Origin: an uncultured virus (IMG/VR IMGVR_UViG_3300013382_000005)
Taxonomy: Duplodnaviria > Heunggongvirae > Uroviricota > Caudoviricetes
Length of the DNA stretch: 55,407 nt
Virus record (IMG/VR): IMGVR_UViG_3300013382_000005
Reading direction: 5' to 3' (one strand)
Shown: positions 11,955 to 53,224 of the stretch, piece after piece
Layout: every line of letters begins with the position of its first letter
Numbering within the stretch: position 1 is the stretch's first letter
Position numbers and translations under genes: made by a program
The notes under the pieces: model-generated
What the model was told of the DNA's origin: nothing
Databases searched by the model: none
Seen by the model: only the letters and a program-made list of their open reading frames with translations

Positions 11955-12279
11955 CCATGTTCTTAAAAAATTCTATAACTTGTTTATAATCTTCGATAGT
12001 ATTATTTATCTTAGAATTTTTTGGCATTTCTTTACTCAATGCCTCTAATTCATTTAATCTCATATTAAGAAAAGTTATAATAGACCTAATATAGTACTTA
12101 GCTATATATATGTCTACATAATCATCTTCTTTTATAAGATCCAATGTTTCTTCAGATAAAATATTTACTACTTGTTGTCTCGCAGCTTTTGGTTGCAACT
12201 TGGTAGAATTGAGCAAGGCTCCGATATAATTAACGAAGCCTTGTTTAATCTGCGTCAAGTCATTACTATAAGTATTCAC
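11941..12279 (-). CDS. Hypothetical protein
   Basis: 112-aa ORF overlapping its neighbours. Confidence 0.7.
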   Translation of the reverse strand: MNTYSNDLTQIKQGFVNYIGALLNSTKLQPKAARQQVVNILSEETLDLIKEDDYVDIYIAKYYIRSIITFLNMRLNELEALSKEMPKNSKINNTIEDYKQVIEFFKNMDGGE

Positions 12280-15200
12280 GACGTTATATTTTCCTCTTTA
12301 TCAGATTCTTCTGTTGTATCTATAACAGAAACAGAAGCTATTGTATCATTGTCGTTAAGCCTTATAAGTCTAACTCCCATAGATACTCTACCTGTAGATC
12401 TGATGCTAGATAATTTAAGTCTGATCATCTTGCCATACTTAGTAGATACAAGAAGTTCGTCATGATTGTCTACAATAGCAGCAGAAACAACCTGACCACT
12501 TTCTTCTGTTATTTTATGAGAGGTTACGCCACGCCCATTTCTTCCTTTACTTGCATATGCATTACAGGAAGTCTGTTTAGCGAAACCATTCTCAGTAATA
12601 GTCAAAAGATACTTCTTGGAATTAGAATCATTAGAAGAAGGCGTAACAATAACTTTTACAACATAATTATTGTCGCTGAGTTTAATGCCCTTAACGCCTC
12701 TACCAGACTTGCCGGTTTCACGAATCTTATCCTGAGTCATACTAAGAGCCTTACCATCAGATGTAACTAGCGTAATATTGCACTCAGTATTTTTATTCTC
12801 AATGACATCTATATCTGCAAGCATATCATTGTCCATAAGTGTAATAACCTTGGTTACATTACCGCGCTTTGGAAGAAGATCAAAAGACATCTTTTTAAGC
12901 ATGCCATTTCTGGTTGCGAACACAAAAGTACTATTCTTAACCTTTGTATCAGCGGCAATAATATTAACAACCTTTTCTCCAGCCTGAACCTCCTATGACT
13001 AAAGTCACAGGGTTCTCATTTTTCATTATATCTATGATAATAATTGAATTGATATATACTTGATATAATTTCTTGAGCTATCCCCGTAGTTCCTACGGTT
13101 CTTATATATGTTAAAATATTAAGAATTGATTATTCTTAATCCTTCATTTAAAATATTAATTGCTGCATTAATATCTCTATCGTGATTTGTTCCACATTGT
13201 GGGCATGTCCATTCTCTAACAGATAAATCTTTTGTTTGAGAATTGATATGTCCACATATGTGGCACTTCTGAGAACTTGGGTAATATTGATCTATTTTAG
13301 ATACAGTTTTTCCATACCATTTTGCTTTATATTCCAATTGTTTAACAAATTCTGACCATGATGCATCAGATATATTTTTGCGTAATCTGCATGCATCATT
13401 TTTGCTTATGTTCTTATTAGATTTTTCAAACATATCCTTTACATTAAGTGTTTCAATGCATATAACATCATATTGTCTAATTAAATTAGTTGATAATTTA
13501 TGCATAAAATCCAAACGCTGATTATGTATATGAAACTGTAAATTTGCAATCCTTTGTCTCAATTTATTATAACGATTGCTATCCCTTGTTTTTCGAGATA
13601 GCTTTTGCTGTAATAAAGCGAGTCTCTCTGAAGAATTACAAAAATACTTACCTGCATCTATTTTTGTCTGATCGCTAAATGTGCAATAACTTTTTATTCC
13701 TAAATCTATGCCAATAGGTTTATTCGTTTTTGGCAACTCTTTAATTACAACGTCCGTGCAACATAAAGATATATAATATTTCCCATTTGGTTTTTGAGAA
13801 ATTGTCGCATTAAGAATTCTACCTTTATGCTTTCTCCCGCCACGAATTTTCAATAAACCAACTTTAGGAACTTGTATATATTTATCTAAAAATTTAATAT
13901 TGCTATTAGTTCTATAACTGTAATTATGAATCTTTTTAGATTTAAATTTTGGAAAACTTGCTCGTCCTTCAAAGCGATTTTTATACGCATTATCTAAATC
14001 TTTTAAAGAGTTTTGCAATGCACATTTGTCTGGTTCTCTTAACCAGTCCAATTCTTGTTTTAGAGATGTTAAATCTGAACAACATTGATAATACGACATC
14101 GTAACATGATTTGTACGATATTCTTCAATTCTCCTATTTAAATAATAGTTGTATACAAACCTAACGCACCCAAATGTCTTTTGTAATAATTCAATTTGCG
14201 TTTTGGTAGGATATACTCTATATTTATAAGAGACGTCCATAGATTTATTATACTCCTTATTTTATTTTTTGATTTTGAATATATTGCCGTATTTGCTCTT
14301 CTGTATTTTTAGAAACAGTAGCAATATAATAACTTGGATTCCACAAATGTTCATCCAATAATTTGTCTTTTAATTGTTCTTTATATTTTTTCATTAACAG
14401 ATGAGCAGATACTCCCTTTAATGCTTTAAGCATATTGGGTATGTATATTTGTGGATTACAATTAACTAGCAAATGAATGTGATCCAAATCGCCATTGCAT
14501 TCTAATATTTCGAATTCATTGTCTTTTGCTATATTATTCAAAATCTCAAATAAATCTTTTTCAATTTGTCCTGATAGAATTCTACGTCTATATTTAACAC
14601 ACCACACTATATGATATTGAATTGAATATACGTAACCTCTACCATAAGTTAATGTCATAATATTTATTACTCCGTAATAATTAGATATAACATATGAAAT
14701 TAAAAAAGTAAAGTATTTTTCTAAATATATTTTAAATTTTATAATAACATATGTAAGAACCATAAGAACTTACATCTTTAGTTTTTTGGAGGTCTCGTTC
14801 ATACAAGATCGCTACTCTTGTACAGTTCTCTTATGAACTTCTTATATTTTCATATAAGCACAGACTATATCTTCTTCTTCGTCATAACACGGTCAGAAGT
14901 CGTCCACTTCGGATACACTTGTATCCTACATAATAGTCGTTGAACCTTCCCCTGTTCAGGGCTTGGCTGCTGATTGCCTCTTTATTTAGTACTTAGGATT
15001 TAACCATATACTATACAATAATTTTTTTTCTGCTTTCGCAACATTCACACTTAAATTTATTTCAATTTTATGTTGTAGTTTTATTGTCTTTAAGGTTTTC
15101 CAGCAATTCAAACGATATAGGAAATTTTATTAAAAATTTCCTCACATACAAATTTCTTTATATGTGGACTATTTATAGTTATTAACTCATGGTTAAAGGC

Positions 15201-17009
15201 CACGAGTATGCATAACTACTTTTAATCAAGCTGCTTAAGATAATTATTAATATGCTTACCTTTAGAAGTCTTGGCTACCTTAGGAATCTGATACCCCTTA
15301 AGAATATGACATCTACCAGTACTGGTAAAGAAAAGAAGATCGTCTTTATTACTCATATAAATAATCTTCTTGATGCTATCATTATCAGCTTCATTTATAT
15401 ACTGATTGATTCCTTTACCATTTCTGGACTGAGTCTTATATTCTTTCTCACTTACAGACTTTATAATATCATTATTAGTATAACTAATAACAATAGGTTC
15501 TTCTGCAATTAGATCTGCTTCGTCCAAAGCGCTATATTCAGATTCTTCTATTATAGTTCTTCTCTGGTCTCCATACTTCTTTTTATATACCAAGAATTTG
15601 TTCTTAATATATTCAAGAAGTTTATTTTGATCATTTAATAACGAATCATATTCTGCCGACTTATTATTTAAAGAAGTCAGATCTTCATTATACTTAGCTA
15701 TATTAGCATGAGATATATTTTTTAATGGCATATCAAGAATATATTTTATCTGATTGTCATTTTCAAATATATTAGTTGCCTTAAGATCTTCAAACTCATT
15801 ATCGCTATTTTGAAGAATATCGATAACAGTATCGATATTTGTAGCCGCAAGTATAATTGCTCTTACTGTATTGATTCGCGCATTAAGCCTTTCATTCTCA
15901 TATGCAATATAATTATATGTTACGTTAACGCCATGAGATAGAAAAGCTGTAAGCATAGTATCAAGATTAACTGTTTCAGGTTTGCCATCGACGAGAACAA
16001 CATTATTTACGCCGATAGAAGTCTGCAATGAAGTCTTACTGAATAACTTATTAAGTAACAGGTCGACATTAGCGTCCTTCTTGACATCAATAACAATTCT
16101 TACGTAGCATTCCTTGGATGACTCATCTCTTATCTCTTTGATTTCTGGCAAAACACCGTTATCTTTAAGAGAATCTATAAATTTAACAAGCTCTGCCTTT
16201 TTAGACTTATAAGGCAAGTCATTAAATATTATCTGTGTTGTGCCATTTTTAAGAGTCTTAGTAGTATAATTTGCTCGTACAATTATACTGCCTCTTCCAG
16301 TCTTAAAATAACTTCTGATACCTGATGTGCCTACAATAGTTCCACCTAATGGAAAATCCGGTCCTTTTATAATTGAGAAAACTTTATTTTCGTCAATATC
16401 TTCTCCATTAATAGTTTGATCTATATAATAGATTAACGCATCGTATACCTCACTTATATTATGAGGCACAAGATTACAAGCCATGCCTACTGCAATACCT
16501 GAAGAGCCATTAATAAGTAGATTAGGAATAAGTCCGCTTAATGTTACTGGTTCTTCTTTTGTATTATCAAAGTTAGGCATAAAATCTACTGCATTCTTAT
16601 CGATATTCTCAAGCATATCGTATCCAATACGAGTAAGTTTTGATTCGGTGTAACGGTAAGCAGCCGGTGGATCATCATCAAGTGGATTTCCATTATTGCC
16701 ATTAAAGTCAATTAACGGATATCTCATTGTGATAGGCTGAGACATAGCTGCTAAAGCATCATAGGTCGATATATCGCCGTGAGGACTGAATGCACCTATA
16801 ACATGACCAACTGTAGTTGCACATTTGTGAAAATTAGCCGATGGGGTCAAATTATTGACCCACATCGAATATAGAATTTTTCTTTGAACTGGTTTAAGAC
16901 CGTCTATAATATTAGGCAATGCTCTATCGGTTATGACTGAAACGGCATAATCGAGAAAAGAATTGCCAACTATATTACTAACGTCTTGTGTTAATATTGT
17001 TTCTGGCAT
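12276..17009 (-). CDS. gyrA: DNA gyrase subunit A, 2 exons (15225-17009, 12276-12983), 830 aa spliced
   Basis: DRALP..DGLKPVQR, PHGD, AAYRYTE, GIAVGMA; beta-pinwheel repeats; junction KQLD|AGEKVV is in frame. Confidence 0.95.
13119..14240 (-). CDS. tnpB: TnpB RNA-guided endonuclease (IS605 family) of the IStron
   Basis: YKYRVYP, FGCVRFVYN, GIDLG, IETL, SSQKCHICG, CPQCG..HDRDINAA; RuvC D/E/D intact. Confidence 0.95.
   Translation of the reverse strand: MDVSYKYRVYPTKTQIELLQKTFGCVRFVYNYYLNRRIEEYRTNHVTMSYYQCCSDLTSLKQELDWLREPDKCALQNSLKDLDNAYKNRFEGRASFPKFKSKKIHNYSYRTNSNIKFLDKYIQVPKVGLLKIRGGRKHKGRILNATISQKPNGKYYISLCCTDVVIKELPKTNKPIGIDLGIKSYCTFSDQTKIDAGKYFCNSSERLALLQQKLSRKTRDSNRYNKLRQRIANLQFHIHNQRLDFMHKLSTNLIRQYDVICIETLNVKDMFEKSNKNISKNDACRLRKNISDASWSEFVKQLEYKAKWYGKTVSKIDQYYPSSQKCHICGHINSQTKDLSVREWTCPQCGTNHDRDINAAINILNEGLRIINS
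14257..14658 (-). CDS. tnpA: Y1 HUH transposase TnpA
   Basis: YHIVWCVKYRR, DHIHLL, LWNPSYY, YIQNQ; ATG at 14658 after GGAG. Confidence 0.93.
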   Translation of the reverse strand: MTLTYGRGYVYSIQYHIVWCVKYRRRILSGQIEKDLFEILNNIAKDNEFEILECNGDLDHIHLLVNCNPQIYIPNMLKALKGVSAHLLMKKYKEQLKDKLLDEHLWNPSYYIATVSKNTEEQIRQYIQNQKIK

Positions 17010-24830: not shown

Positions 24831-25385
24831 TTAATCAATCGTAATAATCGAAGACAAACTATTATTTATTTGATTCTTTCTTGTAGTTTGAACATCTATA
24901 ACTCTCTGATTAGAAGATCCACGCCATTTAAGACGCAAATCTCTTAAATCATCTTTATATGGTCCATCTACAAAAACATCACAATTATTTATAAGATGTC
25001 TTCGCGCATTCATTATTTTTATATCTTCATCTGGAATATTGGGATCACTAAAAATCTGCCCCCAAGTAAATCCAGACCAAATCCATACATTCTTATCTAA
25101 TTCTTCTCTTATCTTTATAGCTAAACGTGTAAGACCAAATATATCTTTTTCATTTTGCCATAAAGGATCTCCACCTAATATAGATAATCCTGCTATATGA
25201 GGTTTAGATACTAATTGAAGAATTTTATATTCTGTATCTTCTGTATATTGCTTGCCACAGTTATAATTTTGAGCTTCTTTATTGAAGCAATTATAGCAAT
25301 GAAATTGACAACCAGATACAAATAAAGATACGCGAATACCTGGACCATTAGATATGTCCATTTGTCTTATACAAGAATAATTCAA
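24831..25385 (-). CDS. nrdG: Anaerobic ribonucleotide reductase activase
   Basis: NGPGIRVSLFVSGCQFHCYNCFN, LGGDP, VDGPY, RGSSNQR; directly after nrdD. Confidence 0.95.
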   Translation of the reverse strand: MNYSCIRQMDISNGPGIRVSLFVSGCQFHCYNCFNKEAQNYNCGKQYTEDTEYKILQLVSKPHIAGLSILGGDPLWQNEKDIFGLTRLAIKIREELDKNVWIWSGFTWGQIFSDPNIPDEDIKIMNARRHLINNCDVFVDGPYKDDLRDLRLKWRGSSNQRVIDVQTTRKNQINNSLSSIITID

Positions 25386-28300
25386 TTGTTTACCTCATGA
25401 TTATCCATATGAACATATCTTTCTGCTATTTCTTGTGTACGCCCCTGATTCCAAAATTGAGTACCTATATCCTTTATACCTTCGGTTTCCCGATATTTAT
25501 AAGAGGAGTAGACTATACAATATAATTATTTGCTTTATTACATCAACATCTTTGAAAATCTCTAAAATTATAATTACTTTTATATGTTCCATCAAAGTTT
25601 CTTATAACATGTTCAATTTGCAAAGTGTAATCTGTATTCTCTTTAGCAGTGCACCATTCTAAATTTTCAGCCCTGTTATCATTTCTAACACAATTTTTAT
25701 GATTAACGTATTTTTTATTTTCTGGATTTGGCAAAAAATATTGTGCTACCAATCTATGAATATATAAATCTTTTCTTTTATTTGTAGAATTTTGCCTCGC
25801 ATAAATACGTGCATATCCATTCCTTGTTAATCGAGGATTTATCTTATAAAGTTCTATTGTTTTATTTCTATTTCTATTTCCTTGTCCTAAATTGCAATAT
25901 ACATTGCCATCATCAGATATAAAATATCCTTTATAATCTATTATTGGTTTTATCATAGAACGTGTCTCTTTATATTATTATATAATAAGCAAATAATTAT
26001 TTGGTATTATAGTCGTTGAACATCTTCCTTCAGCTTTTCTGTTAAGGAATTTTGCTGCGTCTGAGTGACTTGCACACTCGGTTGTCCCTACACTAATTAC
26101 TTTTTATGGTTTCTATTTTATAAAAACTGTTGAGTTTTAAACTCGCACCGCATTCACATTTGTCGTTTCCAACTCTGTTGTAGCGAATTAGTATTATGGG
26201 GAGTTTCCCGCAATTTCACCAATTTAAAGTGGACTATATAGTTAATTTAATCCACATGTACGACGGGCGACATTCATTTTAGTCTGATCTTCATTACCAC
26301 AATTAGGGCAATGCCATGAAAGTTCACCGTCTTGATCGATTATTTGAATTTCTCCATCATAACCACATATCTGACAGTAATCACTCTTAGTATTGAGTTC
26401 AGCATACATTATGTTATCATATATATACTTAATAATTTCGAGAACAGCATCAATATTGTTCGTAAGATCTGCGCATTCAATATAACTTATTGCCAAAGGT
26501 TTTTAGCTTTAAGTTTGCTTTCTACAATATTGCGTAATTGTTTTTTCTTTTTTTCTGGAAGAGATTTTGTAAATTCTATTTTTTTATTATGTTCAGATTC
26601 GTTTGTAAAATCCTTAAATAATAGTTTTTCTGCATATAATCTCTTATAAACAGCTTCTTCTATAGATTCAGTATAACCTAAGTGACAACGTATTGAACCT
26701 AATCTAATTTCTGGATCATATCTATTTCTATCTTTACGATATGTGACTCCAATAAATCCTGAAGTATTATTGCTCATAAAAGATTTATTTAATACATTTT
26801 CACTTTGTTCACATATTCTAAGATTGCATTTTCTATTATCTTTAGGATTTCCATTAATATGATCTACTGCTATATTAGTAACAATGCGATTATCTAATCC
26901 TAAAATTACCCAACTTAATTCACGCTGTGTACCTTGTGATGGTAATCCTGTTACGATATGAGAATGAGAAAATCTCCATTTATGATATTTAACTTTAGAT
27001 AAATCTTCTGTATCAATAATAAATTCATCAATTTTTTCAGATGTTTTCCCATCGTATAAATATCCAATAGTTTGATCACCATTAATAATAAATTCATTTA
27101 AATCATTTTGTGTTCTTGGACATGTATCTAAGAATTCTCCATGATTAAATAACTGATGCATATGTTTAGAACATAATGTATATCCTTGCATTCTAATTTT
27201 TTTATATGATTCTCTTCCACAGACTTCACATGTATACATATTTTATTTTTTCCTTCCGACTATATCTTCTAGTAGCAGGTAACCACTGCTTCACTAGTTA
27301 TGCGCTTCCCAAAGTGATAAAATCTTTGGTACATTTAGTCTGTACACCTTCTATATATTAATATAGCTTGGCACGGGATTTCCATTTTAGTGTCCCCCGT
27401 TAGCTTACTATTACATAGTAAACACCGTTTTTTCTTACGTTCACACAATTTCAAGGTGGCTATTCAAAGTTATATTGAATGTTAGTTTAACCACCTGGAG
27501 ATAACTTCTGATATTCTGATTCAATCTTTAATTTCTCAAATGGATCTATATGTTCGCGGACATTTATATGATAACTATTAGTTATATAATCATGATCCGT
27601 TACATCTTTAATTATACCAAAACGTTTCTGCAAGCACTTAGCAAATTTAAATGTAGTCGACTCGATAGGGCTCCCATACGTCGAGTATGCAATATCTTCA
27701 TTATTTTTCCACTCATTACATTTATCATTGAGAGCTTGCATAACTTTTAATCCAAACTCTTTCCCTATACCGTGCGAATGTGACTCACCTGTCATATACT
27801 TTACGCATTCATAAAGTCCTGCGTATCCAAGTGATAATGTACTATAGCCACCATGAAGTAATGGATGAATTGGCGCACCCTTAGGGAGTCTTGCTAATGC
27901 TCCATGTTGCCAAAGAATTGGCGCAACATCTGATGTAGCAAGTGCGAGTCTTTCATGCCTATATTGCAATGCTTTATGGCAAAGTTCCATGCGCTCGTCG
28001 AATAATTTCCAGAATTTATCTATGTCTTTACCTGACGATAAAGCAATATCTGGAAGATTGATTGTTACAACGCCTTGATTAACAATCTTCTATATATCAC
28101 TATATAGTTTAGACTATCTCTTCATACCTTTCTTCAGGTATACAGTGCTCTTCGGGCAGTGATAAAATCTGTCCTACCTCCTTATACTCATCAGGAGTAG
28201 TCGTTACACCTCTTAAATGTTCTATATTTTTAACCTTTTTGAACTCTAAAATGTTATATCTTTTTTTGAACCATTTTCTCTTAAAAAATTTGTTGATTGC

Positions 28301-31300
28301 TCCGTTACTATTAGGATGATTACAATAGTTTATAAAACTATTCGCTGGTGCAAAAGATAAAATTTTATCTTTTTGCTTATCATAAACAGTTAAATAAAAC
28401 ATATTCCCTATTCTATAATCGTTGTCAACACAATCTTTAATATTTTCCTGTTGAGTACCAACATATAGATTGTTTATATTATTATTAAGAGCGTTATCGT
28501 CTTTGTGATTCACTTGTTCTGTACTGTCAATGTTTTTGATCCACGTATCACATACCATTCTATGAACTGGAATATGTTTTTGCTTTCCGTTTATATAAAC
28601 GTCAACGCAATAATATTGCTTTTCTTTTCCACGAAGAACGTTCTTGACAATTTTTTGTGAAAATTTAGAAAATACTTGACCGTCAGAACTGACATAATAA
28701 TTATGATTGTGCCTATATTGTTTGAATTCTTTTCCGTTATAAATAATAGATTCCATATAATTTCCTCCTAATATGGCGTAATTATATTTTTAATTAGGCA
28801 CGGTATTGTCTCAAATGAGAGTTTCACCGTTAGCAGGATTTATTTCCCACATCGCTTTTTCTTGCGTTCACACTGTTTATGGTCGGCTTAATTTAGGCGG
28901 TTAACCGACCCCAATACTTAGGTTTATTTGTCTCTGGATCAATATATGGTGTCAAGAAACTTCTGCATCCCATACAAGCATATACATTGCCATTACCATT
29001 TTGGTCTACCTTGTCTCTACGCATAATTTTTGCCGAGATATAATCTGGTACCATACGTTTTGCTGTACATTTAGCAGATAATACCGTTAAATACCAAAAT
29101 GGAGAATCTTCAGTTATATTATTTTCATCGAGAACATAAAGAAGCTTAGGAAATGCAGGTGTAACATAATGACCAGATTCATTTTTAAAACCTAATATTC
29201 TTTGTTTCAAAAATTCTTCAATCAATAGTGCAGTTTCATGCTGATATTCTATATTATCATTAAGATACATAAACACAGAAAGAAATGGAGCTTGTCCATT
29301 AGTATTTGTCATGCTATTAACTTGATAGTTAAAAGTTTGTACAGCATCTTCAATTTCTTTCTTAGTATCAATTTCTGCCCATTTGTTTGATGATATTGCA
29401 TCAAATCCGCGATTAATATATTTATCAATATAAATGTTATAACTATCTCTCACAAATGGTGCGAGATCAGATAAATTTATTGATGCTCCACCATATGAAG
29501 AGCTAGTAACTGCTGTTATAATCTGAGTTGCAATAGTAGCAGCCGTAATTAGTCTATGCGGTTTATCTATTTTAACACCATTTATTGCAGTTCCGTTTTG
29601 AAGCATATCTGCGAGATTTATAAGCTCGCAATTGTGAAGTGATTTTTGTGCAAAATAATCCTTATCGTGAAAATGTAATATTCCACATTCGTCTGCTTCA
29701 ACTATATCTTTAGATAATAATAAACGTTTAGTAATATCTGTACTTGTTATCCCAGCAAGATAATCTCTTTGAGTAGTTACAATTCTTGGATTCTTATTAG
29801 AATTTTCTTTATTCCAATAATCCGAAGTACCATCAATTAATTCTTTTATGCTTTGATCTGTGGTATTTGCTTCTCTTATTAACTTATGCAAAAATCTATA
29901 TTCAACATAAGTTTTGGCTATATCTTTATGTTTTGAAGCCATGAGCTTATTTTCTACAATATTCTGAATCTCTTCAACATCGAATTCATCAGCATTCATA
30001 GCTTCAATTGAATCGGCAATCTTTAACGATATACCAGTAGAGTCTTCTTGATTATTATCTGCAAATGCTGCTTGTATAGCATTTATTATCTTTTGTTTAT
30101 CGAATGGAACTTTACGTCCCCGTTATATTTAGCATAAAACTAAATTTACTGCTTCACAGCGTTCCATTTTGTCAAATGACTACTCTGGTTTTCATAACGC
30201 TCCACAGCATTGAGGTGTAACGACACCTATATGATTAAAGTCTTTACAATTTTGTTATTGTAATTTCAGACAGTATACCTTTGCAAATTTAAAGCAGCTT
30301 GATAGTCTCTATCTATAGCAAAACCACACTTTGGACAAACAAAGATTCTATCTTTTAATTTTAAATCTTTATGTATATGACCGCAATTTGAACATGTTTT
30401 GCTACTTGGATAATATCTATCTGCTTGGATAAATTCAATATTATTCCATTCACACTTATATTTANNNNNNNNNNTTCTGACGTATAAATTCACCAAAGCA
30501 TTCATTTTGAATGGATTTACTTAAATGCCGATTTTTCATCATACCTTTAACATTTAAATCTTTCATAACAACACGTGATGGATTCATTTTAATAATTGTA
30601 CTTGTGCATTGATGAATATAATTATTTCTTATATTAGATAAACGAGAATATATCTCCTTCAATCTTTCTATCAACTTTACAGTATTATTGCTTGTTATAT
30701 AGATACGCCCATTTTTATTTTGGCGGAATTTTCTGCTTATACTATGTTGATAATATTTAACGCGTTTTTCTAATTCTTTTATTCTTCTGCTTTTATTTAT
30801 ATTATGGAATATTATTGATTTATCATTATATGCAACAACTGCAAGTTCTTTAACGCCAAGATCAATTCCAACTCTTATATCTTCGTGCGTCTGTATTTGG
30901 TTCTCACACTCGATGCTAAAAGATATAATCCATTTATTATTTATATGCGTTATACGAACATTGCTGAACTTTTGTTTATTTCCAATTGGTAAGTCAAAAT
31001 CTGTTTTATACTTGACTCTTCCTATTAACTGAATTTGAACATCCTTGTTGTCACGAAAATAAAATTTTTCATTACAAACAGGATATGATTCTTTTGAATG
31101 TTTTTTACTTTTAAACTTAGGGAATCCAGATATTTTAGCAAAAAATCTATCATAAGCATTCTGTAAATCTATACATACTCTTTGTAAACTAGTGTTAGAT
31201 ACATTATATAACCACTCATGCTCACCATCATTTTTTAATGGTTTAAGTAGTTTTATCATATCAAATGCTGTTAGATGTTTTTTACCATTATTATATTCTA

Positions 31301-31943
31301 TGATTTGATATTCTAACATCCAATTCCAAATATATCTGCAAGAACTTATGTGTTGATATAATTTCTGCTCCTGATCCTTTGTTGGAAACAAACGAACTTT
31401 ATAGCCTTTAATCATGTTGTTCTCCTTTCTTATTGAAATGGTATATACTAATATATTACCATATAAACACGTTCTTAAGAAAAGAGAATTTTAGTTTTTT
31501 AGACGCTACTCTTTGCTGAGTCATTAAAACTCCTCATACTTTTCGTATGAGCGTAGACTATATCTTCATTTTATCATGTTTTACGAATTATAAAAATGAT
31601 AAAAGATTACCATTTCGATTTAAGGGATTCTCACCCACGCCAATCACTTGCGCCCTACTCCTAAAGATATTGATAAAATATCCAATGGGATAGTCGTTGA
31701 ACCTTATTCTATTCGAATCTTGGCTGCTGATTTGCCATTACAAATACTTAGGATTTAACCATATACCATCTATTTATTTTTTCTACTTTCGTAACCATCA
31801 CATTTAGACTTGTTTCATTCTTATGTTGTGGTATAAATAGCTTTAGGCTGTTCCAGCAATTAGATAATTTTTTTTTACACACACATTGCTGTATGCGGAG
31901 ACTGAACTTAAGGTTAATCTCTTTTAATTACTATGGTTTTCAT
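25382..31943 (-). CDS. nrdD: Class III ribonucleotide reductase, 5 exons (31917-31943, 28904-30119, 27490-28082, 26250-26493, 25382-25470), 722 aa spliced
   Basis: Junctions give [16 protein letters not shown] (ATP cone), GR-F-NQGVV (Phe codon split), SPGG|AISY and RTCG-Y-IG (glycyl radical motif, Tyr codon split); also MGCRS, YITNSYH. Confidence 0.95.
25471..26249 (-). ncRNA. Group I intron nrdD-I4 (779 nt) with HNH ORF in P8
   Basis: P1 GTGGAT/GTCCAC; AATTGCGGGAAA, ACGCAGCAAA, TTCAACGACTA, GTATAGTCT; terminal G. Confidence 0.92.
25543..25956 (-). CDS. Intron-encoded NUMOD4-like/HNH endonuclease
   Basis: [41 protein letters not shown]. Confidence 0.9.
   Translation of the reverse strand: MIKPIIDYKGYFISDDGNVYCNLGQGNRNRNKTIELYKINPRLTRNGYARIYARQNSTNKRKDLYIHRLVAQYFLPNPENKKYVNHKNCVRNDNRAENLEWCTAKENTDYTLQIEHVIRNFDGTYKSNYNFRDFQRC
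26487..27239 (-). CDS. Intron-encoded HNH endonuclease with AP2-like C-terminus
   Basis: [28 protein letters not shown].....EA...R..AE. Confidence 0.9.
   Translation of the reverse strand: MYTCEVCGRESYKKIRMQGYTLCSKHMHQLFNHGEFLDTCPRTQNDLNEFIINGDQTIGYLYDGKTSEKIDEFIIDTEDLSKVKYHKWRFSHSHIVTGLPSQGTQRELSWVILGLDNRIVTNIAVDHINGNPKDNRKCNLRICEQSENVLNKSFMSNNTSGFIGVTYRKDRNRYDPEIRLGSIRCHLGYTESIEEAVYKRLYAEKLLFKDFTNESEHNKKIEFTKSLPEKKKKQLRNIVESKLKAKNLWQ
26494..27489 (-). ncRNA. Group I intron nrdD-I3 (996 nt) with HNH-AP2 ORF
   Basis: P1 GGTGGT/GCCACC; GCTAACGGGG, CCCGTGCCAAG, GTACAGACTA, GAAGATATAGTC; ends TTTG|GCA. Confidence 0.92.
28083..28903 (-). ncRNA. Group I intron nrdD-I2 (821 nt) with HNH ORF
   Basis: P1 GGTCGGT/GCCGACC; GCTAACGGTGAA, ACCGTGCC, GTAACGACTA, AGAGATAGTCT; terminal G. 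Confidence 0.92.
28109..28756 (-). CDS. Intron-encoded HNH homing endonuclease
   Basis: YYVSSDG.V.S, VHRMV...[16 protein letters not shown]. Confidence 0.9.
   Translation of the reverse strand: MESIIYNGKEFKQYRHNHNYYVSSDGQVFSKFSQKIVKNVLRGKEKQYYCVDVYINGKQKHIPVHRMVCDTWIKNIDSTEQVNHKDDNALNNNINNLYVGTQQENIKDCVDNDYRIGNMFYLTVYDKQKDKILSFAPANSFINYCNHPNSNGAINKFFKRKWFKKRYNILEFKKVKNIEHLRGVTTTPDEYKEVGQILSLPEEHCIPEERYEEIV
30120..31916 (-). mobile_element. nrdD-I1: group I intron carrying IS607-type tnpB and omega-RNA, no transposase
   Basis: P1 GAGAT/GTCTC; core AATTGCTGGAA, AATCAGCAGCC, TTCAACGACTA, AAGATATAGTC; tnpB follows the core; ends TATAACGG at the 3' splice site. Contains an N gap. Confidence 0.88.
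30266..31415 (-). CDS. tnpB: TnpB (IS607-type), interrupted by an assembly gap; RuvC-II Glu replaced by Lys
   Basis: GIDLGVK, VVMKDL (usually EDL), [34 protein letters not shown]. Confidence 0.88.
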
Positions 31944-32234
31944 ATGTGTTATATATCTCACTTAACTTTATAAATAGTATTTTTAACCTATTTTTATTAT
32001 TAGGTAAGGAAGATATTACTCATATACGTTTGTCTTATCTGTCTTAATAATGCAAATCATATATTAGTAATATCTTCTATATTGTCATTTTAAACAAATC
32101 TTATTTGTTGTTAAAACAGACAAAATACTATAAATAAAATTATATCTTTTGCACTATTAATTATTTAACTCAGCATCAATCTGCTTAAATTTTAAATCTA
32201 AGCTGCTGAGTTTATGATTATATATTTTATGTTT

Positions 32235-32696
32235 CTANNNNNNNNNNCGTTTTTTGTCACCATTGCTGAAATTTGAATCGTATTTTATTTTATCCTGATC
32301 TAATATTTTTTCAGGAGAAAATAATGATCTATCTACTCTAGGTGAATAAAGTTTCGATCTCTCTTCTTTAACCTGTTTGCAATATGCATCACGAATCTGA
32401 TTAAGTCTTGTAATTGTAAGCTTGATATTACTATCTGCATTACTCATTGCAGAGATATAAGCTAATTCTTCTTTAAGATATCTACGCTTAATAAGCGTAT
32501 CTCTTAATCTTACTACTATTTGAGTAAGTTGTATTGCGTCCAGGCGTTCAAATTCAAGACAATGCTGTAGATCAACAATTGTTTTATCACATTCACTTAG
32601 TTGACTATTACATTCATCTTTATATACATTCAAATCTTTAAGGATTTTAGTCAAGCTATTCACTGTATTAGGTAAGTCAATGAATTTTGAATCCAT
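32235..32696 (-). CDS. Hypothetical coiled-coil protein (3' end in an N gap)
   Basis: LS..DK...DL.H.LE...RR..K...YSPR pattern. Confidence 0.7.
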   Translation of the reverse strand: MDSKFIDLPNTVNSLTKILKDLNVYKDECNSQLSECDKTIVDLQHCLEFERLDAIQLTQIVVRLRDTLIKRRYLKEELAYISAMSNADSNIKLTITRLNQIRDAYCKQVKEERSKLYSPRVDRSLFSPEKILDQDKIKYDSNFSNGDKKXXXX

Positions 32697-32706
32697 ATAT
32701 ATTTCC

Positions 32707-33489
32707 TTACTTTTGTTCTGTGCATGGATGTTCTTCAGGGCAGTATCCTAAATACTTTCCTAAATACTTACATTTTGGCACAAAATAAGTATCTACGATA
32801 TATTTCCATTCGGGAGAATAAGCGCTTAAGGCATTTTCAATATCCGAAAACAAGTTTCGGAATTCCCAGTATGCTCTCTTACATTTTCTCTGATGAGACA
32901 TATCTATAAGGGTTCTTAAATTGATTTTACAAACTACGGTAGTTGTCATACCAAGAGGAAGTATATTTGCCACATCTTCTTTTGGTGCCCCAAGATCTTC
33001 AAGCTGCTGACCTGTTTCTCTTATAATTTTCATAAGAGCTTTATATCTTGCTAAAGCTTCAGGCATACTTGCTATACTATCAGGGATAATATATTCAAAT
33101 CCCTTTTTAGAATAGTCTATATAACGAGTACTAGATTGAAGTCTTGTCGGCAATCCACCTATATGAGTATAAAATTCTCTTACAACTCTTGCAGAATAAC
33201 CTTCAAGAACCATATAAATATCTGGAAATTCTAATGGGCGTCCATGCTGAGATTTAAGGCAGTTCATGCCACGCTTAAAATTCTTTTCTTCATCTTCTGT
33301 ATCTGCGCCATAACAAACACCTGCCATTTCTCCTATTAATCTAATAGGATCTGAGCAGGTGTGATCTGTTTTTATAATGACCTTATTGAACCTTCCACGA
33401 CTAAAGTCGCGAGATTCCTGCTTCATAGACCTTGCAACCTCAGTCTCCACAGGCTTAATTTCCGTAGTTCCTACGGTACTATTTTTCAT
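32707..33489 (-). CDS. thyX: Flavin-dependent thymidylate synthase with IS-derived N-terminal extension
   Basis: AGVCY, H..PLEF, SARV.RE.YTH, QSSTRY, EDVANILP, NLR.L...QR.C.RAYWE.R. The first ~34 aa are encoded by the IS right end. Confidence 0.9.
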   Translation of the reverse strand: MKNSTVGTTEIKPVETEVARSMKQESRDFSRGRFNKVIIKTDHTCSDPIRLIGEMAGVCYGADTEDEEKNFKRGMNCLKSQHGRPLEFPDIYMVLEGYSARVVREFYTHIGGLPTRLQSSTRYIDYSKKGFEYIIPDSIASMPEALARYKALMKIIRETGQQLEDLGAPKEDVANILPLGMTTTVVCKINLRTLIDMSHQRKCKRAYWEFRNLFSDIENALSAYSPEWKYIVDTYFVPKCKYLGKYLGYCPEEHPCTEQK

Positions 33490-34650
33490 AACTGTTTTAT
33501 TCCTTCATTTAAAATATTAATTGCGGCATTAATGTCTCGGTCATGTGTTGTACCGCATTGCGGACAAACCCATTCTCGAACAGATAAATCTTTAGTATTT
33601 GAATTAATATAACCACATACATGACACGTTTGACTTGAAGGAACAAAGCGTCCAATCTTGATATATTGTCGATCATTCCATTCCGCTTTATATGTTAATT
33701 GTTGTGTTAGTTCAAACCATCCACAATCGTATATGGCCTTCGCAAGATTGTGATTCTTCACCATATTGCTAATTGCCAGATCTTCACTAACTATCACTTG
33801 GTTTTCGCTGATAAGCTTATGAGAAATTTTGTGTAGGTAATCAACTCTAGTGTTATGAATCTTTTCGTGGATTTTTGCAACCTTGATCCGTTGTTTGTTG
33901 TAATTGTTGCTACCTTTGATTTTACGAGATAATAGCCTTTGTGCTCTCGCAAGTCTTCCTTCGTACCTCTTTGCTATGCGTTGGTTATTATACTTCTGAC
34001 CGCCTGATGTAATAAGCAAGTCCTTAATGCCAAGGTCAATCCCGATCTTACCATCAGTCGATGGAAGTTTCTTATGTTCAGTCTCGACAAGAACTGATAC
34101 AAAATATTTACCAGATGGTGTCTGTGATACCGTTGCGTTTTTTATCTGACCATAGAACGGTCGACTAAGTTTTGCTTTGATGAGCTTTAATTTCGGAAGT
34201 TGAATCTTATTCTGATCGAACAGAATCTTAATGTTTCCCTTTCCGCTTGTTGCGGTTGTATACGAATTCCTGTGATTGTGCTTACTGCGAAACTTCGGAT
34301 AACCCGAATGAAGTTTGAAGAATCGTTGATAAGCATTGTCCATCGCAAATACTGCATATTCGAGTGTAAATTTATCAACCTCTTTGAGCCATAAATTCTC
34401 ACTTTTTAAGACACGGGTATAATACAAACAATCTAATTTGCTCATCGATTTCTTTTCTGTCTCATATAATTTCTTTCGATAAGCAAGGACCTGGTTATAT
34501 ACGAATCGGCAACAGCCAAACGTTTTCTGAATTAGCTTTTCTTGTTCCTTGTTCGGATATATTCGATACTTATATGCTTTAAGTATTATGTATCACCTGT
34601 TTTTGTTCGTTTACTCATGACTAAAGTCACGATGGTATGCTAGCGTCTTA
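33386..34650 (-). mobile_element. tnpB-only IS200/IS605 (IS1341-like) element inserted 5 nt into thyX
   Basis: Left hairpin CGTGACTTTAGTCATG; right hairpin CGCGACTTTAGTCGTG then GGTTCAA; removal gives ATG AG|T AAG GTC ATT (MSKVII). Confidence 0.9.
33486..34586 (-). CDS. tnpB: TnpB RNA-guided endonuclease; ATA at the expected start
   Basis: Frame extends upstream of the track start to LKAYKYRIYP...FGCCRFVYN after SD AGGTG; GIDLG, SEDL, HDRDINAA intact. Confidence 0.9.
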   Translation of the reverse strand: MLKAYKYRIYPNKEQEKLIQKTFGCCRFVYNQVLAYRKKLYETEKKSMSKLDCLYYTRVLKSENLWLKEVDKFTLEYAVFAMDNAYQRFFKLHSGYPKFRSKHNHRNSYTTATSGKGNIKILFDQNKIQLPKLKLIKAKLSRPFYGQIKNATVSQTPSGKYFVSVLVETEHKKLPSTDGKIGIDLGIKDLLITSGGQKYNNQRIAKRYEGRLARAQRLLSRKIKGSNNYNKQRIKVAKIHEKIHNTRVDYLHKISHKLISENQVIVSEDLAISNMVKNHNLAKAIYDCGWFELTQQLTYKAEWNDRQYIKIGRFVPSSQTCHVCGYINSNTKDLSVREWVCPQCGTTHDRDINAAINILNEGIKQL

Positions 34651-35100
34651 CTCATAGATCTGTACCTCAAGATCTTCGAGCGATGACAGATACTTGATCA
34701 TTAGCGGTTTAACTGTGCCCTCCCAGTCAAGTCCGCCAAGGCCACAACCTATTCTTGGAAATGCTACAGAATGTATACCTACATCTTTATAAGTTTCCAC
34801 AAAATTCTGTAGACCCTTTTCAATATAATCTATAGTAGACTTACTCTTCCAATGTTTCTTAGTAGGGAAGAGAATAATGTCGCGCTCATCACACTTACTG
34901 CCAGGATAATAATAAAGCTTGCCAATATCAATCAAATGATACTGGCAAGCTTTCTTGTATTCTGTAAACATCTTTGGATACCTATTCTTAAAATCGAGCG
35001 CAAGTCCTTTGCCCATAACACCTACCGTATTGACAGGATTAACAATAACCTGAGCATCACTATCAAAGATGTTTTCATTTTTCTTAAATGTAACCATCAT
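34648..35100 (-). CDS. Macrodomain ADP-ribosylhydrolase (DarG-like)
   Basis: IVNPVNTVGVMGKGLA..FK, FPTK.HW, AFPRIGCGLGGL.W. Confidence 0.9.
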   Translation of the reverse strand: MMVTFKKNENIFDSDAQVIVNPVNTVGVMGKGLALDFKNRYPKMFTEYKKACQYHLIDIGKLYYYPGSKCDERDIILFPTKKHWKSKSTIDYIEKGLQNFVETYKDVGIHSVAFPRIGCGLGGLDWEGTVKPLMIKYLSSLEDLEVQIYE

Positions 35101-35119
35101 ATATACTCCTTTCGTTTGA

Positions 35120-35338
35120 TTATTCTATATTTGCAATGTATTTAAGTGAATCAATTGAAAGCTCTTTAGCAGTAAAAAGAATTTGCTGTGTATTATCAAG
35201 CAACTGTTTTACGTTCTCAAGCATATTCGCGTCAATACACTTCTTACACAATTCTATTGAAGTATTGATAGTATCAAAAGAATTGCCTAATGCATTACAA
35301 GTACGTCTTGCTATATTTTGATTCTTCTTAGATACCAT
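35120..35338 (-). CDS. Hypothetical protein
   Basis: 72-aa ORF in the operon. Confidence 0.55.
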   Translation of the reverse strand: MVSKKNQNIARRTCNALGNSFDTINTSIELCKKCIDANMLENVKQLLDNTQQILFTAKELSIDSLKYIANIE

Positions 35339-49384: not shown

Positions 49385-49470
49385 TGGTAGGTCATTCAGG
49401 ATTTGAACCTAAGCTATATCTTATCCGGTGATTATGTTGCAATGCGCTCTACCAACTGAGCTAATGACCT
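49385..49470 (-). ncRNA. tRNA-like RNA with intact acceptor, D and T arms and CCA but no anticodon arm
   Basis: AGGTCAT/ATGACCT-A-CCA, TAGCTCAGTTGGTAGAGC, GGTTCAAATCC; central ~30 nt do not form a stem. Confidence 0.7.
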
Positions 49471-49504
49471 ATATAATCTGGATAATTTCTATCCAGATTT
49501 ATTT

Positions 49505-50134
49505 TTATCTGTTATGCTTTTCTTCTCTCTTATCTTTTCTTTTTCTTGATCTAAGAATAAAGTTCTTATATTGTTTATAAGATCTTATATTTATATACTT
49601 ACAAAGATAGGTATCGAAGCATTTTGCGTCATGGCATAATTCATACTCATTTGCAGAAGCAATGATATAAATTTCTTTATCAGGATTGTATTTTATTGCG
49701 GCTTCAAATAAACCTTCTTTTAAATCTATTATATTATCTATGGATAATCCACTATCAACTGCATCAAACAAAAACCATAATTCTTTAGCATTTGGATTTT
49801 TTCGAACCAATGCACCCATCTGATTGCCTATATTGTATAAATTCATTACAATATTTTCACCTTCAGATGATTGGACAGCAGTTGCTAAGAAATTAAAATC
49901 ACCGTAAAATCCTGCTTTTGATCTAGCATTTTCTCCGCCATCTTTTAGATTATCATAAAATACATATGGTATATTTTCTTTGCTTAATTTATACTGAATC
50001 TGATTGAGTAAAGAAGTTTTACCACAACCATTACATCCAATAAGTATAGTAACACCTGGTTCGAATGTAACAAAACTACGATAATATAAATTACCACATT
50101 CATTAGGGTCTCTATCGATTTTAAAAGTTCTCAT
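49505..50134 (-). CDS. ABC-type ATPase
   Basis: GCNGCGKT, SSEGE, LFDAVDSGLS. Confidence 0.8.
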   Translation of the reverse strand: MRTFKIDRDPNECGNLYYRSFVTFEPGVTILIGCNGCGKTSLLNQIQYKLSKENIPYVFYDNLKDGGENARSKAGFYGDFNFLATAVQSSEGENIVMNLYNIGNQMGALVRKNPNAKELWFLFDAVDSGLSIDNIIDLKEGLFEAAIKYNPDKEIYIIASANEYELCHDAKCFDTYLCKYINIRSYKQYKNFILRSRKRKDKREEKHNR

Positions 50135-50158
50135 ATATTATATTATTTTTTTAAAATA

Positions 50159-50193
50159 AAAATCCCTATATCAAAATATAATATAGGGATTTT
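50159..50193. terminator. Terminator-like hairpin
   Basis: AAAATCCCTATAT...ATATAGGGATTTT. Confidence 0.55.
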
Positions 50194-50441
50194 CTTTGTG
50201 GACAACGATCTTATAGATAGCTTAGACGTTAATCTGTTTACACAAATATATAGCGTCTATTGCATAGCTACGATATTTATTTTATTGCTCTATCGTTAAG
50301 CAAACTTTTTTAAGTTCAGCGTATATAGATTTACTATATACTTTTAAGCTAAGATATATCTTATGCTATCGGCTAGCTGATATTACCCGTAAACATCTTG
50401 AGATTTGCTCAAGACAACTAAAAGCTATGCAATAGAACTAC

Positions 50442-50517
50442 TGGCTCCACCTGCTGGGCTCGAACCAGCGACATCATGATTAACAGTCATGCGCTCTGCC
50501 AACTGAGCTAAGATGGA
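50442..50517 (-). tRNA. tRNA-Asn(GTT)
   Basis: Full cloverleaf, CATGA-CTGTTAA-TCATG, CCA end. Confidence 0.95.
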
Positions 50518-50810
50518 ATAAAAGAATGTTCAGATAGTTCGTTAAGCTATCCCGCTTTATACAAGCTGCTTTTTATTACTAAAAAGATCTTCCCTTGCCT
50601 CTTTACGCTGCCAAACACTTGCAGCTGCTACAGAGAGTGGTACAAACCAAAAGGCGTTCTAAATCCACTCTAAAACTGAATGGGGAATCAGGCACTAAAG
50701 TACCTCAATCTAGTCCTATTTAAGTATAGGGTTTTGATTTTTAAAAAATCAAGACAGTTAAAATTTTCAATTAATTGTTATGTATTAAAGATTGCTGTTA
50801 CTGTCTTAAA

Positions 50811-50902
50811 TGGCGGAAGATGAGGGATTCGAACCCCCGGTCCCAATTAAAGGAAGCATAGTTTTCAAGACTACCTCGTTATAACCACTTCGATAATCTT
50901 CC
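50811..50902 (-). tRNA. tRNA-Ser(TGA)
   Basis: Long variable arm, loop CTTGAAA, GCCA end. Confidence 0.93.
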
Positions 50903-50920
50903 AGATTTTTCAAATGAATA

Positions 50921-50949
50921 TTGACAAGCAATGTCATTTGTGATATAAT
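50921..50949 (+). promoter_or_regulatory. Consensus sigma-A/70 promoter antisense to the tRNA cluster
   Basis: TTGACA-17 nt-TATAAT. Confidence 0.8.
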
Positions 50950-51038
50950 ATATATACTGCAAGTGATTGAAGATCCCCGGACTACACACAAAATATTTTT
51001 ATAAAAATATGTATATTAATTCGGAGGATATTCAATCT

Positions 51039-51134
51039 ATGGAATTAAAAGAATTTATCAATACATTAGCAAGCGTAATTACAATATTTATGTTTGTAGC
51101 CAGTATTTTTGATTCAAATCATTCACGATTTTAA
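51039..51134 (+). CDS. 31-aa hydrophobic peptide, type I toxin-like
   Basis: SD GGAGG; MELKEFINTLASVITIFMFVASIFDSNHSRF; own promoter and terminator. Confidence 0.6.
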   Translation: MELKEFINTLASVITIFMFVASIFDSNHSRF

Positions 51135-51358
51135 CTTTTATTTAATTATTTTTAATATAATAATATAAGAATAAAATCGCTTGCAGTATTCCCTACCTCG
51201 TATTCACAGTACAAGGTGGGGGATTTTATTTTTACAGAAAATAACCAAACTGCTATTTTTAAGTCAAATAGTAACTCAGATTTTACTCTAAACTCTTGAG
51301 AAAGTCGTGCTGCCAAAACACACGGTTTCATTCTAAAGCTCTAAGACTTTAGTGGGCA

Positions 51359-51435
51359 TGGTCCAAATAGTGAGACTCGAACTCACGGCCTCTAGATCCC
51401 AAATCTAGCGTTCTAGCCAACTGAACTATATCTGG
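51359..51435 (-). tRNA. tRNA-Pro(TGG)
   Basis: CTAGA-TTTGGGA-TCTAG; CCA end. Confidence 0.93.
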
Positions 51436-51440
51436 ATATA

Positions 51441-51516
51441 TGGTGAACATGTCGGGAATCGAACCCGAGACATTATGATTAAAAGTCATATCCTCTACCA
51501 ACTGAGCTACATGTTC
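51441..51516 (-). tRNA. tRNA-Lys(TTT)
   Basis: TATGA-CTTTTAA-TCATA; CCA end. Confidence 0.95.
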
Positions 51517-51523
51517 ATTTAGA

Positions 51524-51652
51524 TGGTACTCCTATAGCTAGCTTAATAATTTTAATCCCATATAAAACTATTTTACTTTCAAATCCTATCCAGAGTCGAA
51601 CTGGAGTCTCTGCCGTGAAAGGGCAATGACTTAACCACTTGTCCATAGGAGC
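51524..51652 (-). tRNA. tRNA-Glu(TTC) with displaced 3' acceptor end
   Basis: TTGCC-CTTTCAC-GGCAG anticodon arm; the proper end ATAGGAGTACCA lies 48 nt beyond a first ATAGGA. Confidence 0.75.
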
Positions 51653-51764
51653 ATATATTGTGATTTTGTAAAGTGGCAGACTACGGGCGGTCTGCCAGCG
51701 CTAAATATTATATTCCAAAAGGTTTGCTTATCTAATAGTCTGTGTTTGTAATATTAATAAGCAA

Positions 51765-51840
51765 TGGAGCTTCGCGTCGGACTCTAACCGACAACCTACC
51801 GCTTACAAGGCGGTTGCGCTAACGATTGCGCCAGCGAAGC
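51765..51840 (-). tRNA. tRNA-Thr(TGT)
   Basis: ACCGC-CTTGTAA-GCGGT; variant T loop TTAGAGT; CCA end. Confidence 0.85.
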
Positions 51841-52061
51841 ATATATAGCCATTTCTGGCTATGTTATAAAAGTCCAATCGGTTTGTGCATTGCTAAAAGC
51901 AATTAAGCATGATTGGCTCTGTCCAAATTTTAAATACGGAAACGTCTTAGGCTATCTTTGGTTTTCGGATAGCCATCAGACGAAACCTCAGCTCGATCTA
52001 CACTAGGTCAGACGAGTAAAATAGGAAACTTCAAGCCGTAGGTCTTTGAAGTAATATCCTA

Positions 52062-52137
52062 TGATTGCAGATCGGGGAGTTGAACCCCGGTTGACGGGAT
52101 TATGAGCCCCGCTTGGAAACCAACATCCAGATCTGCA
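52062..52137 (-). tRNA. tRNA-Met(CAT), initiator-like, atypical D arm, ends ATCA
   Basis: CGGGG-CTCATAA-TCCCG; TGCAGAT/ATCTGCA acceptor stem. Confidence 0.75.
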
Positions 52138-52276
52138 ATATTGGGTTATTGTAATTATATATTACTATCACAAAATAATCTATATTATATCTTTAAAGAT
52201 ATAATTAAGAAAAAAATACTCCATAACTCTCCCTAGGAACAAAACTGTTGCACGATGTGCTAGAGCTACGGAGTAT

Positions 52277-52385: not shown

Positions 52386-52388
52386 ATA

Positions 52389-52455: not shown

Positions 52456-52469
52456 AATAATATAATAAC

Positions 52470-53177: not shown

Positions 53178-53224
53178 ATAAAAACCAATAATAATCCTTA
53201 ATATTTTAAATTATAATTAATTGA

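Follow-up and report, generated by a model that had tools for sequence, protein, structure and literature searches.

The 55,407-nucleotide (nt) DNA of an uncultured virus of the Caudoviricetes (IMG/VR record IMGVR_UViG_3300013382_000005; this whole stretch is called the window below) carries an insertion in nrdD that is probably a descendant of an IS607-type (group B) IStron without the transposase gene tnpA. The insertion comprises a group I ribozyme, the nuclease gene tnpB, an omega-RNA, and an insertion sequence (IS) right end that acts as the 3' splice site. IStrons are a model for the sharing of one sequence by a ribozyme, a transposase, and an RNA-guided nuclease, and we propose that the TnpB of this element served in its homing, with the nuclease step likely dead in the window copy. 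An earlier note on this DNA had called the element a candidate RNA-guided homing intron. Its anatomy fits that description, and the concept of RNA-guided intron homing as such is not new, since TnpB-guided homing and retention of a Clostridium botulinum IStron have been published in work that includes tnpA-less IStrons (10.1101/2023.11.20.567912). What looks new is a transposase-free class of junctions with the canonical U at the end of the 5' exon, representing an undescribed branch of the IStrons.

The insertion follows codon 9 of nrdD on the minus strand (Table 1), which confirms the position given in the earlier note. Its removal restores the nrdD frame as KRD^GRK (^ marks a junction here and below), in agreement with uninterrupted homologues. 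Of 46 phage nrdD loci related to this one, 45 run uninterrupted through K-R-D/N^G at the point of insertion, which lends the proposed exon junction good support; the match of the 46th starts at residue 134 and is uninformative here. By the same 45 loci, nrdD does not commonly carry the insert, and no intron was found at the KRD^G site of any other nrdD among them. Only the partition adopted in Table 1 gives an in-frame KRDG together with a U at position -1 and a G at the intron end. The junctions thus read AGAT^TAACC...TATAACGG^GGACG, and an exact search for this pattern returned no match in viral contigs and two in metagenome contigs.

The 5' part of the element matches the Rfam group I intron model over positions 1-253 (56.5 bits against a gathering threshold of 50; E 3.8e-13). 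This match came from a permissive Rfam scan of 2.2 kb, a default-filter gathering scan of the 55-kb window having missed the intron. The pairing of one internal guide with both exons, GAGAT in P1 and GGAC in P10, had been claimed from inspection and is borne out in silico: GUCUC (31902-31898) pairs with the exon-1 end GAGAU, placing a U.G pair at the splice site, and GUUC (31907-31904), just upstream of GUCUC, can pair with GGAC at the start of exon 2. The minimum-free-energy fold contains P1 and P2 (z = -4.95; 0 of 200 shuffles were equally good), and the predicted last intron base is a G (G30120), as group I introns need. The 5' splice site is separated from the guide by only 14 nt, UAACCUUAAGUUCA, compared with about 55 nt and a repeat in the IStron of Clostridium phage c-st. 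No AT-rich imperfect inverted repeat complementary to the right end was found at the left end of the nrdD element. Over 172 nt (query 69-240), the ribozyme core matches the c-st IStron intron at 82.9% identity; it matches introns of Enterocloster phages that bear homing endonuclease genes at about 82% over about 175 nt, and the intron of an IStron in the gyrA gene of the same phage at 76% over 172 nt.

The ribozyme is followed after 117 nt by tnpB. This spacer holds no open reading frame (ORF) and leaves no room for a transposase; neither a serine tnpA nor a remnant of one was detected in the element, and a Resolvase domain was found in none of the 62 window ORFs scanned, nor in a 44-kb record (G001) that is near-identical to the window. 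The absence of a left end and of a transposase, as claimed in the earlier note, is upheld by these results and by the short distance to the guide. A run of N splits the window tnpB into two separate ORFs; in a 235-kb metagenome contig (L213) holding a 12-kb stretch 99.6% identical to the window, the gene is one intact ORF of 379 amino acids (aa). The protein keeps the RuvC-I motif GIDLG, the RuvC-III motif DRD, and a CxxC...CxxC zinc finger, and no relative in the viral and bacterial collections exceeds 57% identity with it. The closest named relative of the whole element is CbISt4 of phage c-st, with 75% DNA similarity over matched pieces that make up 27% of the query. Table 1 of Tourasse et al. 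2014 (PMC4227781) places CbISt4 among the IS607-type IStrons of group B and gives its ORF A as deleted. Among distant relatives, whose TnpBs are 37-44% identical, 14 of the 32 upstream ORFs tested encode MerR plus Resolvase serine transposases and none encodes a Y1 transposase, so that the IS607-type label holds. The earlier reading of the element as IS607-like is supported by CbISt4, by these serine transposases, and by the right end, and the place of tnpB after the catalytic core is confirmed.

An omega-RNA scaffold lies downstream of tnpB and extends to the element boundary as a RAGATH-18 match, a hairpin, and a terminal AACGG. The right end ...AACGG is also the 3' splice site of the nrdD intron, so the coincidence of IS end and splice site that had been remarked on stands. 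Among the right ends listed for relatives, ...AACGG closes the element in 10 of 18, and the remaining 8 end in ...CAACGAG, ...ACATCAG, or ...GATACGG.

This layout is that of group B IStrons. In both CbISt4 and the C. botulinum element (CboIStron), a 5' IA2 group I ribozyme is followed by tnpB and an omega-RNA, the right end ...CGG doubles as the site of 3' splicing, and TnpB belongs to a clade linked in relatives to serine TnpA; tnpA is often missing, and homing by TnpB and omega-RNA has been shown for CboIStron. The nrdD element likewise has a 5' intron, a 3' IS607-clade tnpB with omega-RNA, and a ...CGG terminus. It departs from the group at its junctions. Described group B IStrons follow GG (AGGG, TGGG, GAGG), with the end CGG, or AG (CsISt1), with the end CAG; their 5' exons end in G, and they have AT-rich inverted repeats at the left end. 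The right-end dinucleotide is what the serine recombinase cuts and rejoins (PMC13521648). The nrdD element, in contrast, has a flank ...AGAT opposite a right end ...CGG, a 5' exon that ends in the U of a canonical U.G pair, no left-end repeat, and a guide specific to its site. The passages of the IStron literature consulted describe only TTGAT-, GG-, and AG-type junctions; supplements and figures might hold other cases.

Two further kinds of element resemble it in part. Group A (IS200/IS605-type) IStrons such as CdISt1 also combine a group I intron with a TnpB-bearing IS behind a 5' exon ending in T, but they have a TTGAT-like pentanucleotide flank, a TCAG end, and a Y1 TnpA, whereas the nrdD element has an IS607-clade TnpB, a RAGATH-18 omega-RNA, and a ...CGG end. 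The intron of Enterocloster phage CB457P2, which carries an I-TevI-like gene, has the same type of ribozyme (81.9% over 175 nt). Introns of this type and the nrdD element share a position in conserved phage genes, the canonical U at -1, a site-specific guide, a nuclease gene within the intron, and a target present only in the intron-less allele. The nrdD element differs in that its nuclease is RNA-guided, in that its cargo descends from an insertion sequence, and in that the RNA must run past the 3' splice site to include its guide, which sets splicing and guide formation in competition.

The junctions of the nrdD element recur elsewhere. Ten elements whose two junctions could both be read, at ten sites and one per site, have a U at position -1 of the 5' exon (Table 1); we refer to them as the U(-1) class. 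The 5' flank is AT in nine and CT in one, and the right end is GG in nine and AG in one. The sites include two positions in terminase large-subunit homologues, as well as other genes. In each, the internal guide, the five bases directly 5' of P2, complements the element's own exon end, and the guide thus co-varies with the 5' exon (guide/exon GUCUC/GAGAU, GUUCA/UGAAU, GUAGG/CCUAU, GUCGA/UCGAU, GUUGC/GCAAU, GUAUC/GAUAU, and GGUCA/UGGCU, with GUUC/GAAU in four, weakly so in L246). With an eleventh element whose right end lies off the locus (L221), flanks end in AT in 10 of 11, and tnpA would fit into none of the 11. The TnpBs of the first six elements form a clade with IQ-TREE support of 99/95. 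In a FastTree analysis with all ten, their most recent common ancestor holds only U(-1) elements and three rows with an absent or cut 5' part (support 0.63), and the sister group consists of the canonical elements L008, L223, and L225. The earlier note had described a site-adapted intron without tnpA. The lack of tnpA extends to the entire clade, whereas restriction to nrdD does not hold, there being at least ten elements at different sites.

A contrasting class of 11 other TnpB-linked introns, three of which carry a serine tnpA, has matching dinucleotides at the two junctions (Table 1). ORF continuity served to check the boundaries of L008 and L223, and the reading frame and published description that of c-st; the others were read from their ends. 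Two loci with a broken tnpB (L160, L167), one with an unclear 5' end (L145), and two cut at a contig end (L218, L219) were left out of the junction tallies. Two alternative assignments were rejected. A boundary of L005 after ...ACCGT puts the exons out of frame, and ...TTGAAT^ was adopted instead; L008 was considered as GG-type, and AG/AG yields an ORF from its ATG.

Two observations concern single loci of the clade. L006 and L221 are U(-1) copies at different sites of one viral contig; their TnpBs share 81% identity across the 236 aa that L221 has before the contig end, and their guides, GUAGG and GUUCG, each fit their own exon. At L007:2914-4272, a TnpB and omega-RNA unit without ribozyme, 91% identical in DNA to the unit of L005, sits past the stop of an ORF with the left flank ...GAGAT^T.

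Taken together, the features of the nrdD element suggest the following course. The ribozyme would pair exon-1 GAGAU with the guide GUCUC and cut after the U, and exon 2 would then be aligned through GUUC/GGAC and ligated, restoring the ATP-cone motif KRD^GRK. In unspliced RNA, TnpB would bind the omega-RNA, whose guide, by homology to CboIStron, would be the first 16-20 nt or so of exon 2; this assignment applies the rule by which TnpB acquires its guide from DNA next to the right end (10.1101/2023.11.20.567912). In the C. botulinum IStron, the element ends are likewise the splice sites, and splicing competes with the omega-RNA (10.1101/2023.11.20.567912). An empty nrdD site would read AGAT^GGACG..., so that recognition would be limited to intron-less nrdD, with the end of exon 1 as the target-adjacent motif (TAM) and the start of exon 2 as the target. 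The earlier argument that TAM and target exist together only in the intron-less allele is sound in its logic. A cut made by Glu-bearing copies would be repaired from an intron-bearing phage genome, copying the intron in, and the RecA-like, Rad52-like, and SSB proteins of the window would serve such repair. The window copy appears to have lost the cutting step.

That loss is indicated by the RuvC-II position, where the D-E-D triad is broken by a Lys (codon AAA, 30563-30561; VVMKDLNV). Glu occupies this position in all 36 other TnpBs of a 37-row alignment and in 14 of 14 readable relatives, a fifteenth (L017), represented by a fragment of 31 aa, being left out of that count. The nuclease of the window is thus probably dead and homing switched off in this phage. 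A sister copy at the same nrdD site was recovered from four pig-gut runs belonging to four studies, in contigs that span 30075..32049 in one piece at about 94.6% identity and include both junctions. In all four runs, 30563 T>C (plus strand) turns the Lys codon into GAA (Glu), which, with the 36 other proteins, bears out the Lys-for-Glu change that had been noticed in the window. Among the 40 of 114 differences listed, 33 tnpB codons differ between window and sister, 19 synonymously and 14 nonsynonymously, which corresponds to a pN/pS near 0.17 (p 6e-7 in a binomial test of neutrality). By this sequence comparison, TnpB is evidently under purifying selection in this lineage, the mostly synonymous changes fit a working protein, and the Lys is apparently a recent private change. 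The Lys state resembles the early decay that, by analogy, a homing endonuclease would be expected to undergo after fixation of its intron. The Glu and Lys copies offer a natural pair of presumably active and inactive nucleases that parallels the rise-and-decay cycle of homing endonuclease genes.

At 30075, which lies 45 nt inside exon 2, the window and the sister lineage diverge abruptly, and identity of about 93-96% gives way to one of about 50-70%. In L214, a 2.7-kb contig of the sister lineage, the nrdD body is only about 70% identical to that of the window and about 2.5 kb shorter, and identity returns to 93% in nrdG (24940-25393). Homing of this intron could have left such a pattern as a co-conversion tract.

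Several points weigh against our interpretation. The drop at 30075 could equally reflect replacement of the nrdD body, that of the window carrying three HNH ORFs, since identity is back at 93% in the backbone past nrdD. The estimate of selection draws on 40 of the 114 differences. The window TnpB has Lys at the catalytic position and is off-consensus at 3 of 64 near-invariant columns, compared with 0-2 in all others but one. No close intron-less allele was seen, the 45 uninterrupted nrdD being at most 72% identical in protein, and the exon-2 starts of these 45 differ from the guide by several bases. No contig skipping the intron was found in the four pig-gut runs, where contigs drop rare variants and so do not prove absence. 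None of the 16 runs listed as carrying the stretch is an RNA run, and splicing, the omega-RNA, and cleavage are predictions from sequence. The tested IS607 IStron TnpB, that of C. botulinum, requires a TGGG TAM and has a scaffold end ...UCGG (10.1101/2023.11.20.567912), whereas the nrdD site offers AGAT; its expected TAM is therefore not TGGG. Finally, the flank of the ribozyme-less L007 unit hints that AT may be a DNA-level requirement, as TAM or target, and not only one of P1.

How the intron and its TnpB came together bears on what the U(-1) clade represents. Most likely they arrived jointly as an IStron derivative, because the clade occupies at least ten different sites and more distant relatives include elements with a serine tnpA and full IS607 ends. 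The earlier note had proposed that TnpB replaced a protein homing endonuclease, and we found no evidence for entry of TnpB into a pre-existing nrdD intron. Placement of the element by a serine TnpA is unlikely, given the AT/GG mismatch, the loss of the left-end repeat, and a guide tailored to each site; TnpB is the only mobility protein on board. It is possible, though we hold this only tentatively, that the U(-1) clade is a separate kind of mobile intron without transposase, in which TnpB and omega-RNA are the sole homing nuclease and spread proceeds at the RNA level or by another TnpA-independent route, such as guide-directed reverse splicing. Such a route would explain the match of guide and exon, the identity of the inserted unit with the excised intron RNA (U...CGG), and the mismatched junction dinucleotides. 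If true, the clade would show TnpB standing in for a protein homing endonuclease in an otherwise ordinary phage intron. Its members also form a set of natural TnpB/omega-RNA pairs whose TAM, with flanks that end in AT, seems unlike the TGGG of tested IS607 TnpBs.

TnpB might instead be a passenger without a role in homing, the intron persisting because its precise deletion from a gene of importance is rare and spreading among phages by ordinary recombination, with the conservation of TnpB due to selection in another period or setting. The lost catalytic Glu would fit this, as would the failure to find a close intron-less allele among the 45 uninterrupted nrdD or in the four pig-gut runs. The intron, moreover, is about 95% identical to its sister, which is the level of the backbone (93% at nrdG), and vertical descent alone would therefore explain the shared site. 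We nevertheless consider a passenger TnpB unlikely: the low pN/pS holds across the divergence of the two copies, the ORF is intact, and tnpB is kept by the whole clade, with Glu in every other member read.

Little more can be said for an ordinary decayed group B IStron, inserted by a serine TnpA acting in trans at the GG of ...GATGGACG, its boundaries since shifted, its left end eroded, and its TnpB left over. The intron-less site does contain GG (GAT^GG), and the left end keeps TAAC like canonical left ends (TAACAAA..., TAACTAAC...). Loss of tnpA is common in IStrons (PMC4227781, PMC13565253), and in a 2026 mutational study changed right-end dinucleotides still permitted some excision, with altered joints (PMC13521648). 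Canonical insertion at this GG should give GATGG^TAAC...AAC-GG^ACG, and since the observed junctions are unlike this, the element is not a simple serine-recombinase product; to arrive at the observed GAT^TAAC...AACGG^GGACG, 2 nt would have to be lost at the left and 2 nt gained at the right. The non-matching pattern is found in ten elements at ten sites within one clade, and is therefore a property of the lineage rather than an accident. The absence of Resolvase from the window ORFs and from G001, and purifying selection on tnpB, also argue against simple decay, to which we give little credence. The earlier note had regarded homologues with tnpA and an intact IS607 left end at many unrelated sites as the mark of such a history; there are none in the U(-1) clade, and it is the distant relatives that carry serine tnpA and full IS607 ends.

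Nuclease-dead TnpB-like repressors exist, and the Lys variant could in principle have been kept for a nuclease-independent job, either binding of omega-RNA to tune nrdD splicing or RNA-guided repression of DNA. The full-length ORF, the presence of the Lys allele in three assemblies (window, G001, and L213), and the reported regulation of IStron splicing by TnpB (10.1101/2023.11.20.567912) would agree with this, but we find it very doubtful. The three assemblies, 99.6-100% identical, amount essentially to one phage, and a lone, recent substitution confined to one lineage has the look of early decay. Two further changes hit near-invariant columns of TnpB, and the guide has a full match nowhere but at the phage's own interrupted site, where the TAM is missing.

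Table 1. Coordinates and junctions of the nrdD element, of related TnpB-linked introns, and of the gyrA IStron (^ marks a junction)
Feature	Position	Strand	Description
nrdD exon 1	31917..31943	minus	ATG (31943-31941) plus 8 codons, MKTIVIKRD; ends at T31917, ...AAAAGAGAT
Last 5 nt of exon 1, GAGAU	31921-31917	minus	5' strand of P1; would be TAM-side flank of the intron-less target
Whole intron/IStron derivative	31916..30120	minus	1797 nt, TAACCTTAAG...TATAACGG; first nt U31916, last nt omega-G30120
Internal guide GUUCAGUCUC	31898..31907	minus	P1 and P10 guide strands
Group I ribozyme core, P2-P9, Twort-like IA2 type	31533..31902	minus	Rfam RF00028 (Intron_gpI)
tnpB	30266..31415	minus	HTH_OrfB_IS605, OrfB_IS605, Cas12f1-like_TNB (Pfam); ribosome-binding site AAGGAGA upstream
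Omega-RNA scaffold region and right end	30120..30265	minus	RAGATH-18 (Rfam RF03064)
RAGATH-18	30208..30146	minus	60.5 bits
Terminal hairpin	30145..30127	minus	From fold
Terminus ...AUAACGG	30126..30120	minus	Last G doubles as intron omega-G
nrdD exon 2	28893..30119	minus	Begins GGACGTAAAG; Pfam ATP-cone and first part of NRDD domain
First 20 nt of exon 2, GGACGUAAAGUUCCAUUCGA	30100..30119	minus	Predicted omega-RNA guide, and target in the intron-less allele
U(-1) element in window			AGAT^...AACGG^
U(-1) element L005			TTGAAT^...CAACGG^; terminase large-subunit homologue; junction gap-free against 5 uninterrupted spanning homologues
U(-1) element L133 (= L134)			GAGAAT^...CAACGG^
U(-1) element L006			GCCTAT^...CAACGG^; terminase large-subunit homologue; aligns to 4 uninterrupted homologues
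U(-1) element L014			ATCGAT^...TAACGG^
U(-1) element L216			AAGAAT^...CAACGG^
U(-1) element L217			ATGGCT^...CAACGG^
U(-1) element L220			TGCAAT^...TAATGG^
U(-1) element L224			AGATAT^...CAACGG^
U(-1) element L246			AAAAT^...AACAG^; open frame across junction, weak P1 pairing; weakest class member, still counted
Eleventh element, L221			AAGAAT^; right end off locus
Canonical GG/GG			c-st, L225, L154, L156, L149, L182, L189
Canonical AG/AG			L008, L223, L151, L011
gyrA IStron, group I core	15169..14841	minus	5' exon end TTGAT; Rfam 75.3 bits
gyrA IStron, Y1 transposase (Y1_Tnp)	14763..14257	minus	
gyrA IStron, tnpB	14240..13119	minus	Right end ...GGTTCAG^
ORF with gyrase C-terminal repeats	12276-12923		Downstream of gyrA IStron

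The window is phage-like DNA with a G+C content of about 31% and its genes on the minus strand, among them genes for gyrase/topoisomerase, RecA-like, Rad52-like, and SSB proteins, thyX, dUTPase, and nrdD/nrdG, and a tRNA cluster. Beyond the insertion, nrdD is broken further: pieces of the NRDD domain lie at 28893-29999 and 27487-27990 (minus strand), and three HNH_3 endonuclease ORFs (28109-28756, 26487-27239, and 25543-25956) split the nrdD pieces on the same strand in the region 25543-28756. A permissive Rfam scan of 25300-29100 gave no intron at E <= 0.01 in these other interruptions. The IStron in the gyrA/topoisomerase-IV-A-like gene, at 12924-15222 (minus strand), is a complete canonical member of group A. 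A third tnpB (33486-34445, minus strand) encodes 319 aa, has the RuvC Glu and no N-terminal HTH domain, and overlaps the start of thyX (32707-33489); a permissive Rfam scan of 32000-35300 found neither an intron nor a known omega-RNA around it at E <= 0.01. The tRNA cluster (49388-53299) has nine Rfam tRNA matches and adjoins a DUF3800-I RNA (50152-50278) and an ORF for a SegE-like GIY-YIG endonuclease (52470-53177).

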